Positions 3,654 through 44,829 of a stretch of DNA of 64,000 nt are shown piece after piece (positions within the stretch are counted from its first letter, which is position 1; every line of letters starts with the position of its first letter). The notes beneath the pieces are model-generated. The model searched no databases. It saw only the letters and a program-made list of their open reading frames with translations, and had not been told where the DNA came from. The DNA is taken from NCBI GenBank assembly GCA_903821745.1, contig CAIJMI010000005.1:135802-199801 (forward strand), written 5' to 3'. Source of the stretch: Candidatus Gottesmanbacteria bacterium (lineage in GTDB: Bacteria; Patescibacteriota; Microgenomatia; UBA10105; UBA927). A program made the position numbers and the translations under genes.

Positions 3654-4178
3654 GTGAACACAGCATTCAAACACTACCGCATTAATTACCAAATCATTAG
3701 TCCAACCTTACGGCTATTGGATGAGGAAGGAAAACAGATCGGTATTCTTTCTAAAATTGAAGCACTCCAAAAAGCAAAAGAGCTTGACATGGATGTCGTG
3801 GAAATAGCTTCAAACGCCGTGCCGCCGGTAGCCAAACTGATTGATTTTAAGAAGTTTAAATATCAAGAACAAAAAAAGGAACGGGACAACAAAAAAAACC
3901 AGAAGAATGTCGGGGTCAAGGAAGTCAGACTTCGACCATTTATCGGTCAACATGACTTCGATACGCGATTGAAGCAGGCAACAGACTGGCTTGCTGATGG
4001 CAATCAAATCAAAATTAACGTAGTGTTTAAAGGCCGGGAAATTACGAGAAAAGAATTTGGGTTTGACGTCATGAAACGATTTCTTGGCAGTCTTGAGTCC
4101 ATCAAAGTTGTCAGAGAACCGCATCTGGAAGGAAAAGTACTTTCCGCAATGGTCGTCCCCGCAAAAAAAGCCGCATAA
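3654..4178 (+). CDS. infC: Translation initiation factor IF-3.
   Basis: RINYQIISPTLRLLDEEGKQIGIL aligns with the IF3 N-domain ([24 protein letters not shown] in E. coli), and the C-domain follows. GTG start at 3654. Atypical starts are the rule for infC. Confidence 0.88.
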   Translation: MNTAFKHYRINYQIISPTLRLLDEEGKQIGILSKIEALQKAKELDMDVVEIASNAVPPVAKLIDFKKFKYQEQKKERDNKKNQKNVGVKEVRLRPFIGQHDFDTRLKQATDWLADGNQIKINVVFKGREITRKEFGFDVMKRFLGSLESIKVVREPHLEGKVLSAMVVPAKKAA

Positions 4179-4222
4179 TATTTGTCTTGCGTCATGCGCA
4201 AAATTGCCGTATAATACACTCT

Positions 4223-4420
4223 ATGCCAAAAGTAAAAACGAGAAAAATCGCAACAAAACGCTTTAAAGTCAGCAAAGGCGGAAAGGTCATGCACCGAGTT
4301 CAAGGCGCACGGCATTTGCGTTCAACTAAAAGTGCCTCCCGAAAACGGAGACAGGATAAAATTAAATCATTGACGAATCACAAATATATTCAGAACATGA
4401 AGCGCTTTTTAGAAACATAA
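4223..4420 (+). CDS. rpmI: Ribosomal protein L35.
   Basis: MPKVKTRKIATKRFKVSKGGKV is a canonical L35 N-terminus. Start is moved from 4187 to ATG 4223. Classic infC-rpmI-rplT order. Confidence 0.9.
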   Translation: MPKVKTRKIATKRFKVSKGGKVMHRVQGARHLRSTKSASRKRRQDKIKSLTNHKYIQNMKRFLET

Positions 4421-4425
4421 ATACC

Positions 4426-4776
4426 ATGAGAGTTAAACGAGGAGTTACCAGTCACGCGAAGCACAAAAAAATATTCGAAGCCAACAAAGGCTATCGGATG
4501 ACAAAACGCAGGCTTATTCGGGTCGCTAAAGAAGCATATCTTCATGCTGGAGAATACGCATTTGCTGGCCGAAAAAACAAAAAGAGAGATTTCCGTGCAA
4601 CATGGATCAGCCGTATCTCACATGCTGTCGTCATCAAAGGAACATCCTACAGCAAATTTATGAACGCAATCAAAAAAGCAAATATTGTCATTGATCGAAA
4701 AATCATGGCATATCTTATCGTCAACAAACCAGAAAGTTTTGATGCCATCTTTAAAACCGCAACCGGGACAAAATAA
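4426..4776 (+). CDS. rplT: Ribosomal protein L20.
   Basis: MRVKRGVTSHAKHKKIF... is a typical L20 sequence. Operon context also fits. Confidence 0.95.
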   Translation: MRVKRGVTSHAKHKKIFEANKGYRMTKRRLIRVAKEAYLHAGEYAFAGRKNKKRDFRATWISRISHAVVIKGTSYSKFMNAIKKANIVIDRKIMAYLIVNKPESFDAIFKTATGTK

Positions 4777-4801
4777 TACTGAAAAAATAAACAGTATTAT
4801 A

Positions 4802-4831
4802 AAATCCCGCGAATAGGCGGGATTTTTTTTG
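4802..4831 (+). terminator. Rho-independent terminator after rplT.
   Basis: Stem ATCCCGC / GCGGGAT (4804-4810 / 4817-4823), loop GAATAG, followed by a run of 8 T. Confidence 0.65.
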
Positions 4832-4861
4832 GCAAAATATGTACAATAGATACATACGCGT

Positions 4862-15221: not shown

Positions 15222-15236
15222 TATTCTTAGCATCTT

Positions 15237-15470
15237 ATGGTGAAAATTAAACTAACACAAACAGGATCACGCAACAGAAAAACATACCGCATTGTCGTCA
15301 TGGAAGAAGGCAAACGACGGGATGGCCGGCATATTGAGATTTTGGGTGTATATAACCCACTCGTAAAACCAGCACAAGTTACTATCAAAGAAGACCGATT
15401 AAAATACTGGCTTTCCGTAGGTGCTCAAGAGACAGACGGTGTTAAAAATATCCTTGCGAAAAAATCATGA
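15237..15470 (+). CDS. rpsP: Ribosomal protein S16.
   Basis: MVKIKLTQTGSRNRKTYRIVV is a canonical S16 sequence. Confidence 0.93.
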   Translation: MVKIKLTQTGSRNRKTYRIVVMEEGKRRDGRHIEILGVYNPLVKPAQVTIKEDRLKYWLSVGAQETDGVKNILAKKS

Positions 15471-15742
15471 AAGATACACTCATTTTTCTTGTGTCCAACA
15501 TCGTTGATCATCCTGAAGATATTGTTGTTGAAGTAAAAAAAGAAGAGACCCGAGATGTTTTGATTCTCCATGTTCATCCCGACGATATGGGAAAAGTGAT
15601 CGGAAAACAAGGACGAATTATCCGTGCGCTTCGGGATTTACTCAAATTGATGGCAGCAAAACAAAATGCATACGTCGATATTGAACTTTTTGAAGAACCA
15701 ATCGAAGGAACTCCTGTTCCTGAACCCGTTGATACGGTGTAA
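15467..15742 (+). CDS. KH-domain RNA-binding protein (YlqC/UPF0109 family).
   Basis: GKVIGKQGRIIRALRDL, i.e. a KH GxxG motif. Sits between rpsP and trmD as in Firmicutes-type operons. Confidence 0.75.
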   Translation: MKDTLIFLVSNIVDHPEDIVVEVKKEETRDVLILHVHPDDMGKVIGKQGRIIRALRDLLKLMAAKQNAYVDIELFEEPIEGTPVPEPVDTV

Positions 15743-15747
15743 TTTCC

Positions 15748-40701: not shown

Positions 40702-41736
40702 TTAATGTCTGTGAAACCGCTCATGAATTGACCGAAGTTGTGGATTAGTAATGTGGGTATATATTTGCGTTGTTGAGATATTTTTGTGTCCTAACATCTC
40801 CTGAATAGCACGAAGATCAGCTCCTGCAGACAACAGATCCGTCGCAAAACTGTGCCGCAGTCCATGTGGTGTAATCTTAATCGGCAGCCGTGCTTTCTTG
40901 ACATATTTTTCAACCAACCGTTCAACGCTTCGGGCAGAAAGCCTGATACTTTCACCATGTGGATCATGCTCGTCCGGCTTCTTTCCAGAATACCTTATAA
41001 ATAAAGGATCCAAATCATCATCACGCGTTTCCAAATACCGTTTTGTCCAATCAACCGATGAGTCAGATAAAAAGACAACCCGGGCCCGTCGGCCCTTTCC
41101 AATAACGCCAAATTCCTTTCGTTCCAGATTAATCTGATCTCGATTAAGCTTCGTAAGTTCTGAAACACGGAGCCCTGTTGAAAACAACATTTCAAGAATT
41201 GCTTTGTCCCGAAGTCCTTCATTGGTAGAAATTTCCGGCATATTCAACAGTTGTTCCACCTGATCCCGTTCCAAGAATTTGATGCTTCTGCTTTCTGCCT
41301 TTGGGAGGTCAATTTTATCTGCAGACACTGTGCCAACATCTCGTTTTGCGCAATATTTGAGGAATGATCGGACAGCGATCAGATGGTAATTCTGCGTCAC
41401 GCGTTTGAGACTCATATTATGCTCATCCACGTATCTCGACAAAAACAACCGATATTGTCGGATTGACTCGGATGTAACTGCAGAAACCGGAATTGTTTTT
41501 CGTTTGTCCGATTGTTCTTTTACTGCTTCCTCCGATTTTTTATCTATCAAAAGGGGAGTCCCAACAAGATAATCCAAAAACCGGTTCAAATAATGACCAT
41601 AGTTACGGATTGTCAGCGGTGAAACATTCCGCTCAATTTCTAAATATTCTAAAAATTCATTAATAAGTTGTGTAAGCGGCATAGTAATATACGACGTCTT
41701 TACAATTATTGTTGTACGACGTCTGACAAAAAGCAA
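40702..41736 (-). CDS. Xer-like tyrosine site-specific recombinase.
   Basis: N-terminal SAM-like core-binding domain. Catalytic residues R (GLRVSEL)...K...HGLRHSFAT...RAIQEMLGH...Y (TQIYTH). The start may be the internal Met at 41682. Confidence 0.88.
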   Translation of the reverse strand: MLFVRRRTTIIVKTSYITMPLTQLINEFLEYLEIERNVSPLTIRNYGHYLNRFLDYLVGTPLLIDKKSEEAVKEQSDKRKTIPVSAVTSESIRQYRLFLSRYVDEHNMSLKRVTQNYHLIAVRSFLKYCAKRDVGTVSADKIDLPKAESRSIKFLERDQVEQLLNMPEISTNEGLRDKAILEMLFSTGLRVSELTKLNRDQINLERKEFGVIGKGRRARVVFLSDSSVDWTKRYLETRDDDLDPLFIRYSGKKPDEHDPHGESIRLSARSVERLVEKYVKKARLPIKITPHGLRHSFATDLLSAGADLRAIQEMLGHKNISTTQIYTHITNPQLRSIHERFHRH

Positions 41737-42576
41737 TATATCAAATCACGGTACGTATATATTCATTATGATTTCTATACTATTTTGTATTTCCATTGAG
41801 TACTAGTTTTAGCTCTTTCGCATCGTTACAGACGACCATGGTATGCTGACAACAATAGGCACGTTTTTACGTTGTACCCATCACCATTGAAGAAGATAAA
41901 CACCCGCTAAAGGAAGCTATTTTTGAGCCTCTGTAGTGACCTAGAAATTGAATATCCTTGGTGCAATAAGTGTTAGGTCATCAACTTTTGATTTAGCGCG
42001 TCCAAACCGCACATTTCACGCAATATATATAGAGATTTCACAAAATACGGGCAGGGAAGTCAAATACCAAAAATAGCCTCAACGGCCAACCAAGGGAAAT
42101 ACCGTATATGTTTACCTAAACAATGGGTAATTGTTGTTTTGAAATAGAAATAAAAATAAGAAAACATTGATGACAAACAATGGGGATAAAATACCACTTC
42201 TCCCAAGTTCTGAAGCTACCGGACGTCGTAAAAGTATTATTGTGCGTCATTAGCCATTATGCTTCCCACCATGGGTTATCCATCAAAAACGCCAGGTATC
42301 GTTAACCAACTAACATAGACCTTGGGTCTATGGAGATATCCTGTGGTTCTTCCTAAACCTCCGGATACCTCTCAACGAACCCATAAGAACTTTCTTTAAG
42401 AAACCCTAGGTGTAATATCCAGAGAAGAACAAGACCTCTCTCTTTTGTAAGATGCTCACTTCCTAACACGGTCATACGTCTTATTCGTCCTCGAGATAAG
42501 CGTCAACAAACGGTAGAAAAACGTGCACTCCTTAGACACTGACATAAGAACCTCGTTCGGGTTTTTTATAGTTTAC

Positions 42577-43060
42577 AGTTAGCGCGTATTAATGCGCTAA
42601 ACTGTTAATTTCGAGGCTAAATGTTTTTATATTTAACAACACGGATAACAAGAGAAATAGAGCGTCAGAATGCGCTGTCTTTAAGCTTTCGAGGCCACTT
42701 TCACCCCCTAGGGAGATACACGCCTAAAACAAAGAATTGAACGTCGGAATATGTTTTATTTAGCGCGTAATAACGCTCCAAATACACATTTTCGAAGCTA
42801 AATACAACAAATATCGCATGTCTTACAAAGAGAGAGTTGGAGCGTTAATACGTGCTAAACGTAGTAATTCAAGGCTACCGTAATACGAATTGAGTACAAT
42901 TATTAGCAGTCAGCAATCAAGAGCTGATAGTATAGGCCTATTTAGAGCGTATTAATGCGCTAAACTGTTAATATCGAGGCTAAAAACAGAATACTCTGAC
43001 GCTATCGAGAGTAGAGGTTTAGAGCGTACTGATGCTCTATATAAGCAATTCTGAAGCTGC
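42577..43060. repeat. Diverged higher-order tandem repeat. Six ~41-nt units (R1 42577-42621, R2 42659-42698, R3 42758-42803, R4 42839-42879, R5 42941-42984, R6 43018-43060). Degenerate remnants continue to ~43185.
   Basis: Consensus TTTAGAGCGTATTAATGCGCTAAACTGTTAATATCGAGGCTAAA. R1 and R5 are near-identical; the others are about 60-75 percent identical. Spacers alternate ~37 and ~65 nt, so odd and even units each recur every 180-182 bp. Confidence 0.75.
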
Positions 43061-43136
43061 ACGCTACGCGAGATTGAAGCTACTTGAAGCTATATAAGAG
43101 CAGCGTGAAAAGTATCTTATAGTATCGTGAAATTAA

Positions 43137-43145
43137 TTATCCACA
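43137..43145 (+). promoter_or_regulatory. Perfect DnaA-box nonamer TTATCCACA.
   Basis: Exact match to the consensus DnaA box. A 7/9 match (TTATCCATC) lies at 42276-42284. Confidence 0.3.
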
Positions 43146-43224
43146 TCAACTATAGGATACATGCCTTTCGAAGCTAACAACTATATCAAACTATATCATG
43201 CCCCTCTTCCCTATCTCCCGCCAT

Positions 43225-44073
43225 TTAGATACCACGCCATCTGGTTGTAAACAATGCTGCAATAAAAACAAAAATGCAAACAAGGAAAAATCCGATCACT
43301 GTTTTTTTATACAACTTATTTGCTAAGTATTCCTGTCCCATCCCGACCGTGCTGTAAAAGACTGAGGACATTAACAAGGCAATCATGGCAGTGGGCACCG
43401 GCCAGAACGATAACACCCAAGCAAGCTCTCCCAACACAACAGATAAGGCAATGCTCATTGCAATAATTCGCCTACTCACCTGCCCCGTTAATTCCATAAG
43501 CCAGAGTGACGGAAAAATATGCAAGAAACTTAATCCGGAAATAATAATGGTCGTTCCAACAGGATATGCACGAAATGATATGACCGTCAGGGTCAGGAGA
43601 TAAAACGTAAAAATCGTCAAAAGAAAACCAACGGATCTGGCAGCCCGAAGTAAGGCAATAGTCCTATTTGCTGCAACATTATAAATATTTTCTGTCAGTA
43701 AAAATGCATAGAGACCGATTGCATATAATGCAGCAATTGGAATACGGGTTAACCACCGTGGGGGTAAAAGAAAATAAAACAAGGCAACTGCTGCGCTATA
43801 TAAAGTTGGTGGAATAAGGAGTGTCATCCACTCTATTCCTCCTAAATCTTCTCGAAGAGCAAATGCCGCACCAAGGTACGTCATAGCTGCAAGAAGGACA
43901 ACCATTGGATAACGAACAACATCAACTGGTGCAAGTTGGGTAAGCATGAGGCCAAGCGTTAAAACAAAGGTAACTAAAACAAACTGCTGCCGCTTCGTAA
44001 GTTGTATGTGGCGTTCCCATCGTTTCCATCGCTTTTCGATCCAAACTAAAAATTTATGGATTGCTGTTTTCAT
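43225..44073 (-). CDS. Polytopic membrane protein, hypothetical.
   Basis: About 8 TM helices. No motif recognised. Confidence 0.5.
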   Translation of the reverse strand: MKTAIHKFLVWIEKRWKRWERHIQLTKRQQFVLVTFVLTLGLMLTQLAPVDVVRYPMVVLLAAMTYLGAAFALREDLGGIEWMTLLIPPTLYSAAVALFYFLLPPRWLTRIPIAALYAIGLYAFLLTENIYNVAANRTIALLRAARSVGFLLTIFTFYLLTLTVISFRAYPVGTTIIISGLSFLHIFPSLWLMELTGQVSRRIIAMSIALSVVLGELAWVLSFWPVPTAMIALLMSSVFYSTVGMGQEYLANKLYKKTVIGFFLVCIFVFIAALFTTRWRGI

Positions 44074-44076
44074 ATA

Positions 44077-44829
44077 TTATGCAAGGTTTGAGTACACTTC
44101 CTGTACATCATCAAGATCTTCTAATCGTTCGAGAACTTCACTCACTATATCATGTTTTTCACTGGTCAGTTCAACCGTGGTCATAGGAATCATGACAAGT
44201 CTTGCAGCATCACTTGCGATCCCTTTTTCATCAAACACTTTTTTTATTTTAAAAAGATCTGTTGGCTTTGTATATACTTCAATCATGTCCGCAGTTTCCA
44301 AAACATCCAGTGCTCCTACATCAACCGCGACCCCAAACACCGAATCAAAGCTCGCACTTCCAACAGGAATAGTAATAACCCCTTTCCGTTCAAACAAATA
44401 AGAAACTGCACCAGGTGTTGCCATCGATCCCCCTGCATGGTCAAGAATTTGTTTAATAAAGGAAACTGTTCGATTTCCATTATCTGTTGCACCTTCGATA
44501 AATATAGCAACACCAAAGGGAGCATACCCCTCATAGGTAACGGTCATAATGGCATTTCCACCCTCCCCTTTTGCCTTATCTATAATCCGTTCAATATTTT
44601 CCTTCGGCATGTTCACCGCACGCGCTTTTTCAATTGCCAGACGAAGATGAAAATTATCATCGGGATTCGTAATTCCTCCCCCTTCCTTAACCGCAACGAG
44701 GATAGCTCGGGATGCTTGGGTAAAATGAGCGGCTTTTACAACGTCAGTTGTTGCCTTTTGATGTTTCACTTTTGACCACTTAGAATGTCCGGACATAGCG
44801 TGTTCATATTCTATCTTCTCTATTGACAA
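44077..44829 (-). CDS. YebC/PmpR-family DNA-binding transcriptional regulator.
   Basis: N-terminal GHSKWSKVKHQK signature of the YebC family. Confidence 0.9.
   Translation of the reverse strand: MSIEKIEYEHAMSGHSKWSKVKHQKATTDVVKAAHFTQASRAILVAVKEGGGITNPDDNFHLRLAIEKARAVNMPKENIERIIDKAKGEGGNAIMTVTYEGYAPFGVAIFIEGATDNGNRTVSFIKQILDHAGGSMATPGAVSYLFERKGVITIPVGSASFDSVFGVAVDVGALDVLETADMIEVYTKPTDLFKIKKVFDEKGIASDAARLVMIPMTTVELTSEKHDIVSEVLERLEDLDDVQEVYSNLA

Follow-up and report, generated by a model that had tools for sequence, protein, structure and literature searches.

A conserved repeat array and a dif-like palindrome in a non-coding region of Candidatus Gottesmanbacteria: a candidate phased protein-binding module next to a putative Xer site

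We analyzed a 64,000-nucleotide stretch from a Candidatus Gottesmanbacteria bacterium (NCBI GenBank assembly GCA_903821745.1, contig CAIJMI010000005.1, positions 135,802 to 199,801 of the forward strand; hereafter the window), and in particular a non-coding region that holds an array of repeat units and a separate 28-bp palindrome. A metagenome scaffold in ENA (BUCK21-1) has a sequence identical to that of the window. On the minus strand of the window, yebC is followed by a DUF5656 gene, a gap of approximately 1.5 kb that is free of open reading frames (ORFs), an Xer-family gene and ddl. The yebC/pmpR-family gene (44077–44829, minus strand) and the DUF5656 gene (43225–44073, minus strand), which encodes a polytopic membrane protein, form a conserved pair with the module downstream of it; the Xer-family gene (xer; 40702–41682, minus strand) encodes a tyrosine recombinase of 326 amino acids whose closest solved relatives are XerA and XerD and whose nearest relatives overall come from Candidatus Gottesmanbacteria and other Microgenomates. 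The gap is the largest ORF-free gap in the window. Because genomes of the candidate phyla radiation (CPR) are tightly packed (~1 Mb) and the next gap in the window measures 683 nt, a non-coding module of this size, with order, orientation and geometry kept in Gottesmanbacteria and many Microgenomates, is almost certainly functional. A first-pass annotation had read the units as inverted repeats preserved by compensatory changes, and thus as selected either for an RNA hairpin or for a two-fold symmetric protein-binding site, and had preferred to see in them core sites of the adjacent recombinase. While its specific claims are largely refuted, the feature itself is real, widely conserved and more elaborate than had been described.

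The array consists of six copies of a 43-nt unit, all on the minus strand and all within 42579–43061: R1 (42579–42621; TTAGCCTCGAAA-TTAACAG-TTTAGCGCATTAATACGCGCTAA on the minus strand), which is nearest to the 28-bp palindrome, R2 (42657–42699), which is a degenerate copy, R3 (42760–42802), R4 (42837–42879), R5 (42942–42984), which is 95% identical to R1, and R6 (43019–43061), which is farthest from the palindrome. Unit spacing alternates (78/103/77/105/77). Homologous units were collected with an iterated nhmmer profile on 80 related genome loci and with a pattern scan of metagenomes; the profile search found units in about 30 of the 80 genome loci and the pattern scan found them in 95 further loci, with 1 to 8 co-oriented units per locus, all sharing the orientation of the flanking genes. 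In at least 80 of the 95 metagenomic loci the units lie directly downstream of the yebC-DUF5656 pair and in the same orientation as this pair. Read in the direction of the flanking genes, i.e., on the minus strand, 150 homologous units have the consensus TTAGCCTCAAAA-N7-TTTAG(A/C)GC(G/A)T-N4-A(C/T)GC(G/T)CTAAA, and its palindrome thus has arms of 9–10 bp and a centre of 4 nt rather than, as the first-pass annotation had it, arms of 8–9 bp around a centre of 7 nt. What had been described as a second conserved block (TTCGARGCTAAA) corresponds to the first element of the unit in reverse complement; each unit therefore holds three TTAG(C/A) pentamers, of which two are direct copies at a distance of 20 bp and the third is inverted and gives rise to the palindrome. 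The sequence TTCGARGCTAA follows the palindrome in R1, R3 and R5, and an extra copy is found at 43167.

The units are specific to this locus and are conserved across species in sequence, orientation and order. When both strands of the 64 kb were scanned with the palindrome pattern, 6 matches were obtained, all within five of the units and none elsewhere, where 0.02 were expected; this confinement, together with the yebC-DUF5656 context of the metagenomic matches, led us to reject dispersed palindromic repeats, i.e., repetitive extragenic palindromes and bacterial interspersed mosaic elements (REP/BIME) or miniature inverted-repeat transposable elements (MITE). With regard to a link to mobile elements, the pattern of the 28-bp palindrome had no match in viral contigs and the unit pattern had three single matches, which is about chance level. 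The spacing 77/105/77/103–105/78 is common to the window and two related loci (L003 and L004), despite a DNA identity of only ~68% in the array region, and most units are orthologous position by position between species whose Xer proteins are 81–87% identical. R1 and R5 are 95% identical to each other, yet their orthologues in L003 are unlike each other, for which local gene conversion is the probable cause; two units in L004 (3644–3708 and 3826–3890) are identical over the 40-nt unit core and 77% identical over a 65-nt stretch, and a relative with an 88% identical Xer protein (L148) carries seven units. From the R1–R5 identity, the identical L004 cores and the seven-unit relative, it appears that occasional gene conversion, as well as gain or loss of units at the far end, occurs in an array that is otherwise stable in position.

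The reading of R1 at 42579–42600 as TTAGCGCG-TATTAAT-GCGCTAA was confirmed, as was the double change in R6 (TTTAGAGC-GTACTGAT-GCTCTATA), in which a C to A change in one arm is matched by a G to T change in the other. R6 is the sole such case in the window, however, and the notion of compensatory changes between copies has no statistical support. In alignments of 150 to 170 distinct units, which were drawn from about 120 genomes and metagenomes, no excess of covariation was found at the arm positions, a check that had been proposed with the first-pass annotation. Among 150 units, 77.1% of cells were paired, as compared to 76.5 ± 0.7% after shuffling (96 of 500 shuffles reached as high a value), and the covariation score was 0.167, as compared to 0.158 for shuffled alignments; among 170 units, pairing at every variable pair matched the expectation for independent arms (e.g., observed and expected values of 0.52 and 0.49, 0.49 and 0.49, 0.82 and 0.83, and 0.64 and 0.64). 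As pairing equals the shuffled or independent expectation, the symmetry is a property of the conserved outer bases (TTTAG...CTAAA) and not of compensated change, and the double change in R6 is a single coincidence. The inner positions of the palindrome vary independently in the two arms, and the inner bases come in lineage-specific types (GCGC-type and ATTG-type). The other half of the original alternative, a protein-binding site with two-fold symmetry like that of operators or centromeres, has fared better: symmetry that resides in invariant outer bases, inner positions that are independent and spacing classes that lie about 9.7 bp apart all agree with it.

The module is kept in a fixed order, i.e., a perfect DnaA box, 1 to 8 co-oriented units, a length-constrained spacer and the 28-bp palindrome. 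Distances between neighboring units fall into classes of 72–78, 84–90, 92–97, 100–106 and 111–117 nt; the best period is 9.7 bp (R = 0.44), a fit equalled in 1 of 5000 jittered sets. The last unit ends at a median distance of 230 nt from the palindrome (interquartile range 221–252; 109 loci), with a minor class about 100 nt longer, to which the window belongs (spacer at 42251–42578). The length of the spacer is constrained across genomes and its sequence is not conserved, even between genomes with 81–87% identical Xer proteins; folding of the spacer gave z-scores of -1.6, -0.4, +0.7 and -0.8, no better than those of shuffled sequences, and thus no sign of a structured RNA. At the array end of the spacer, the window carries AAAAACCCGAACG (42552–42568), which represents a AAAAACCCGAA(A/C)G motif on the minus strand; this motif occurs 15–20 nt past the last unit in most Gottesmanbacteria loci, and any pairing partner lacks conservation. 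Matches to box 1, the first conserved block of the unit, are concentrated from -600 to -200 relative to the palindrome and on one strand, with none from -200 to 0 and few downstream.

At the array end farthest from the palindrome lies a perfect DnaA box (TTATCCACA; 43137–43145, plus strand). In 73 of 110 loci, the 260 nt that precede the first unit contain a perfect box (9 of 9 positions), as compared to about 0.002 expected by chance, and this box often lies 18–19 nt from a unit. The 1.5-kb gap contains one perfect DnaA box and one with a single mismatch; over the window as a whole, the number of boxes is below chance. On the DUF5656 side of the DnaA box, an isolated copy of box 1 (43166–43177, minus strand; TTTCGAAGCTAA on the plus strand) is placed between the DnaA box and two tandem 10-mers (TGATATAGTT; 43179–43198, minus strand), which are conserved just downstream of the DUF5656 stop codon. 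On the sense strand of Gottesmanbacteria loci, the TGATATAGTT 10-mers precede the DnaA box and two TTTTCACG motifs come after it; in other lineages, an ATCAC/GTGAT inverted repeat flanks the box, and units are present to either side of it.

When the gap was compared with related loci by BLAST, a single island of extreme conservation emerged at 42223–42250, 330 bases from the repeat units. This island is a 28-bp palindrome of the Xer (dif-like) type that reads ATGACGCACAA-TAATAC-TTTTACGACGT on the minus strand, i.e., two 11-bp arms around a 6-bp centre. It occurs in one copy and in the same orientation in 65 of the 80 genome loci, including those of Levy-, Curtiss-, Roizman- and Shapirobacteria, with the consensus ATGWCGYACAA-TAATAC-TTTTRCGACGT; a variant (ACGTCGTAAAT-TGTATC-TTTTACGAYGT) is found in other lineages, and both the 64-kb window and each fetched locus hold a single copy. 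The arms are near-invariant and nearly identical inverted repeats, substitutions fall mostly in the central 6 bp, and conservation ends at the edges of the 28 bp; this matches the layout of dif, which is also 11-6-11 with arms more conserved than the centre. All four combinations of the Y position of one arm with the R position of the other occur, a pattern that points to a protein site rather than a helix, and RNAalifold found no consensus pairs around the block in 67 loci. A small ORF starting at the ATG of the block was considered and rejected, as it is not conserved and in some loci runs directly into a stop codon.

A position matrix of the arms identified, within the gap, only the two arms of the site itself, a full-strength half-site (ACGTCGTACAA; 41712–41722, minus strand) 30–40 nt upstream of the xer start codon and a weaker half-site (ACGTCGTATAT; 41687–41697, minus strand) 5 nt upstream of it. 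The arms of the site score 14–17.5 bits and the stronger half-site at the xer promoter scores 18 bits, while the elements of the units score -5 bits or less. In the window, exact matches to the arm consensus were limited to the xer promoter and a single arm of the site, whose second arm has one mismatch; since the motif occurs in the window at the block and the xer promoter only, a general promoter element was rejected, and apparent extra copies downstream of xer in one clade proved to belong to conserved coding sequence in a folD-like gene. In 53 of 81 loci, the 150 nt that precede the xer start contain an arm-type half-site in the sense orientation, which suggests autoregulation of xer by whatever binds the palindrome. 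The two half-sites located 5–40 nt upstream of xer in the window are direct repeats of the arm motif.

The palindrome is linked to an xer gene in 65 of the 80 genome loci, at distances of 0.25–4 kb and with other genes between the two in some. In single-recombinase Xer systems the site is typically near the recombinase gene, and this linkage has been described as a hallmark of XerS and XerH (PMC5357621). Based on this linkage and on the results with the arm matrix, the 28-bp palindrome, and not the units, is on balance probably the target and crossover site of the Xer-family enzyme. The proposal that the units adjoin a recombinase stands as far as the gene is concerned, which does belong to the Xer family, and is weakened as regards the link itself: 63 of the 95 unit-bearing metagenomic loci have no xer nearby, the palindrome is still found in such loci, and the genes downstream of the module vary by lineage, so that adjacency to xer is a trait of Gottesmanbacteria and their relatives and not of the array as such. 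A dif-like site other than the units, which had been named as an outcome that would speak against them, has a candidate at 42223–42250, for now at the level of sequence inference.

These observations are best explained as a whole, with a probability that we put at roughly 0.45, by a helically phased, one-sided protein-binding array that is coupled to an Xer-type site. The units would be double-stranded DNA sites for a putative sequence-specific protein, each offering three TTAG(C/A) elements, and 1 to 8 co-oriented units, set apart in steps of about one helical turn, would form a one-sided arm that ends at a fixed distance of ~230 bp from the 11-6-11 palindrome, the likely binding and crossover site of the recombinase. 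On the array, a phased nucleoprotein structure would assemble that acts on the 28-bp site and controls the timing or the direction of recombination. We infer the binding of a protein to the units, the action of Xer at the 28-bp site and the influence of the array on the reaction, and the three differ in strength. That the array is bound by protein at the DNA level, rather than acting as RNA or as a set of Xer core sites, appears likely because its symmetry is without covariation, the inner positions are independent, the spacings form a helical-turn ladder, the spacer is constrained in length and free in sequence, and one-sidedness and orientation are strict; an accessory role of the array in recombination at the 28-bp site is a tentative proposal.

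Several points weigh against this interpretation. We found no candidate for the protein that would bind the units: the neighboring genes encode YebC, a membrane protein and Xer, and DUF5656, as a polytopic membrane protein with no match to a DNA-binding domain, was rejected for this role. The units do not resemble the arms of the palindrome, and any contact with Xer would thus have to differ in kind; the loci that have units and no nearby xer, the majority in the metagenomic set, also have to be accounted for. The helical phasing is less secure once the dominant class of 72–78 nt is set aside, as 184 of 5000 jittered sets then reach the observed value, and the unit spacings are not phylogenetically independent. 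Known accessory sequences abut the core site, as opposed to the spacer of ~230 bp that intervenes here, and an accessory-arm model gives no role to the DnaA box that is conserved at the far array end. Finally, GC skew shows no change of sign at the site: skew at third codon positions (GC3 skew) has the same sign over the whole 64 kb irrespective of gene strand, the sign being kept for 42 kb on one side of the palindrome and for 22 kb on the other (distances that, with 50 kb being 5% of a ~1 Mb genome, agree with a dif site either within or beyond that range of a skew switch), and in 49 of 55 loci the sequences to the left and right of the palindrome have GC skew of equal sign. The G-rich strand, which we take to be the leading strand, is the sense strand of the module.

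Two alternatives follow from the first-pass annotation. If each unit were transcribed and its palindrome formed an RNA hairpin that served as a processing signal, as a protein sponge or as a repeated small RNA, one could point to the palindromic consensus retained in all lineages, to the pairing-preserving double change in R6, and to R1, which folds at -16 kcal/mol with a z-score of -4.4 relative to shuffles. R1 is, however, the only unit that is clearly stable as a hairpin; z-scores for R1 to R6 are -4.4, -0.6 (-0.64 for the degenerate R2), -2.7, -0.7, -1.7 and -2.3, such that three of the six (R2, R4 and R5) fold no better than shuffled sequences and hairpin stability is not kept across units. 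Together with the lack of a covariation excess, and with a spacing ladder of ~9.7 bp that would be meaningless for RNA, this makes selection on a hairpin very improbable. Nor are the units intrinsic terminators, since a T-tract lies 5' and an A-tract 3' of the stem on both strands, and Rfam searches (the whole window at the gathering threshold, 41600–43300 at a permissive E-value, and 12 related loci) returned only tRNAs and chance matches of the microRNA type; ARAGORN detected neither tRNAs nor tmRNA in the region, and none in 14 loci. Least credible of the readings considered is the one that the first-pass annotation preferred, in which the units are core sites of the adjacent Xer-like enzyme and recombine with one another by deletion, amplification or inversion. 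Proximity to xer in the window, the palindromic architecture, unit numbers that range from 1 to 8 between species, and the near-identity of R1 with R5 and of the two L004 cores, which suggests exchange between units, are in its favor. Yet the centre of the unit palindrome measures 4 nt, not 6–8 nt, the arms of the separate 11-6-11 site are unrelated to those of the units, and the negative scores of the unit elements on the arm matrix led us to reject the units as Xer half-sites; it is the arm motif of the 28-bp site, not the unit motif, that recurs at the xer promoter. The positional orthology of units between species with 81–87% identical Xer proteins speaks for a structurally stable array, and most unit-bearing metagenomic loci, as noted, are not near an xer gene.

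The main rival places the module in replication control or chromosome organization: DnaA, at the perfect box, would nucleate or cooperate with a protein on the phased units, and the 28-bp palindrome would be an operator or a boundary, with parallels in iteron-type origins, in DnaA-control loci of the datA or DARS type and in centromere arrays like sopC. The succession of DnaA box, phased direct repeats, inverted repeat and a gene with half of this repeat in its promoter is like that in iteron plasmid origins, and the frequency of perfect boxes near the first unit, so far above chance, also favors this rival, which accounts for both. Box 1 (TTAGCCTCA) matches TTATCCACA at all but 2 of 9 positions, a further point in favor; the two differences are at positions 4 and 7, which are usually conserved in DnaA boxes, and count against the similarity. 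Small repeat arrays and DnaA-box-like sequences have been reported at CPR origins in papers from the Banfield laboratory (PMC7111523, PMC4736985). Opposed to these points are the absence of a GC-skew switch in the window and in 49 of 55 related loci, the presence of no more than one perfect and one one-mismatch DnaA box in the region, the absence of an adjacent initiator or ParA/ParB-type gene, and a spacer in the window that is not AT-rich. Because there is no GC-skew switch, the locus is not the chromosomal origin (oriC), which is ruled out by GC3 skew, GC skew and the number of DnaA boxes alike, and we regard the broader idea of replication control as unlikely. Transcriptional control, in which the units would be operators or upstream activating sites and the palindrome in each unit the site of a repressor or activator, is more improbable still. 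Candidate targets would be xer, the long 3' region of yebC-DUF5656, or a small RNA whose start is at or close to the 28-bp block; units co-oriented with the flanking genes are consistent with it, as are an arm motif (ATGTCGYACAAT) that holds a -10-like TACAAT 18–40 nt upstream of the xer start in many loci and a hairpin-like stretch, GGAGAAG and a T-run after the block in most loci. By contrast, lineages without xer have no conserved gene downstream of the module (downstream genes depend on lineage, for which reason a conserved regulatory target was rejected), no sigma-70-like promoter lies in the array (the whole scanned region has 1, as compared to 5.7 expected) and neither such promoters nor terminators exceed chance there, no Rfam family matches, no consensus structure surrounds the block, and eight operators over 600 bp plus a 230-bp spacer would be unusual for simple regulation.

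For a phased protein-binding array attached to an Xer-type site, the closest working analogy is provided by the accessory sequences of cer (ColE1) and psi (pSC101) and, more loosely, by the arms of lambda attP and by DR1/DR2 of the Tn4430 TnpI system. Accessory sequences of the cer/psi type hold binding sites for PepA with ArgR or ArcA. Like these, the array is non-coding, lies on one side of a tyrosine-recombinase core of 11-6-11 layout in fixed orientation and at fixed distance, and conserves the geometry of its (here predicted) protein-binding motifs rather than the intervening sequence. Unlike these, it extends to ~600 bp plus a spacer of ~230 bp, as opposed to ~180 bp directly abutting the core, its motifs are regular repeats without a match to the core arms, and it is located on a chromosome, is conserved across a wide CPR group and includes a DnaA box; the units do not, in our estimation, look like the ARG box to which ArgR binds. 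With single-recombinase Xer modules (XerS/difSL, XerH/difH and archaeal XerA/dif), the locus shares a gene of the Xer family, with XerA and XerD as the best solved relatives of its product, a palindromic site whose two nearly identical arms fit one recombinase, and linkage of site and gene in 65 of 80 genome loci. It differs from difSL, which has an 11-bp centre, in having a 6-bp centre as in classical dif, and from these modules in general in that the site lies 0.25–4 kb from xer, in some cases with intervening genes, that no GC-skew switch is seen, and that a repeat array and a DnaA box are present.

Among partition and replication elements, sopC of the F plasmid, with twelve 43-bp repeats that each contain an inverted repeat, and the iterons of pSC101, P1 and RK2, which are accompanied by a DnaA box, are similar in that direct repeats of ~43 bp with an internal inverted repeat and helical phasing lie next to a DnaA box, and, as in iteron arrays, half of a further inverted repeat recurs at the promoter of the next gene. 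The units differ in being non-contiguous, with 35–70 bp of unconserved spacer between them, and in having YebC, a DUF5656 membrane protein, Xer and Ddl rather than ParA/ParB or Rep encoded nearby; moreover, the inverted repeat shows no sequence relationship with the units, and the locus belongs to a chromosome, where it lies inside one replichore and, judged by GC skew, does not mark an origin. The CIRCE operator of HrcA is TTAGCACTC-N9-GAGTGCTAA, and by inspection the outer TTAGC...GCTAA of the long palindrome is similar to it; the outer pentamers are, however, 12–13 bp apart rather than 17, the inner bases differ, and the units are arrayed and do not precede chaperone genes.

Phased protein-binding repeats, as predicted here, attached to a recombination-type core are thus of a known general kind that would appear here in a new form. 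In our literature searches, neither dif sites nor this module turned up for CPR bacteria, and related remarks were limited to the general ones on CPR origins cited above. It is rather doubtful, on present evidence, that the DnaA box, the phased array, the fixed spacer and the 28-bp palindrome together make up a previously undescribed chromosome-maintenance locus of Microgenomates or the CPR; possible forms of such a locus are an Xer/dif system with an accessory architecture of its own, in which a topological filter on the chromosome would provide control independent of FtsK, or a device that couples DnaA, and hence the state of replication, to site-specific recombination. The analysis offers a concrete candidate for the Xer target site of an uncultured group and, as a testable example, a putative recombination site on a chromosome that would have a DnaA box and a helically phased accessory arm of its own. 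Should the array indeed govern recombination by Xer, control by accessory sequences would extend from plasmids and transposons to a chromosomal locus; if the module instead serves replication control or segregation, it would be the first cis element of this sort to be defined in the CPR.

A number of minor observations concern the surroundings of the module. Two further ORF-free gaps in the window, at 4179–4861 (683 nt) and 15222–15747 (526 nt), are without an Rfam match. A contig of identical sequence from a second sample (ERZ18644181; locus L002) stops precisely at position 41991 of the window, in the region from the palindrome to xer, for which low coverage or heterogeneity among strains may be responsible. 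Most loci have a purine-rich GGAGAAG(T/A)SS followed by a T-run 20–35 nt downstream of the palindrome (window ~42185–42215; GGGAGAAGTGGTATTTT on the minus strand), and a similar GGAGAAGAGG comes after the last unit in lineages without an adjacent xer; this motif resembles either motifs that orient FtsK/SpoIIIE, such as GAGAAGGG, or the 3' half of a terminator stem. Extra arm-type half-sites, arranged tail-to-tail, are found 50–90 nt downstream of the palindrome in some relatives (L008, ~4000–4030; L009, ~4580–4610; L017, ~3624). Around and downstream of the palindrome, ~380 nt of the window (41913–42290) are 81% identical to L003 (4376–4754), while the spacer upstream of the palindrome cannot be aligned. 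Within this stretch, a 13-bp long-range complementarity between 41913–41925 and 42068–42080 is built of sequences that resemble box 1.

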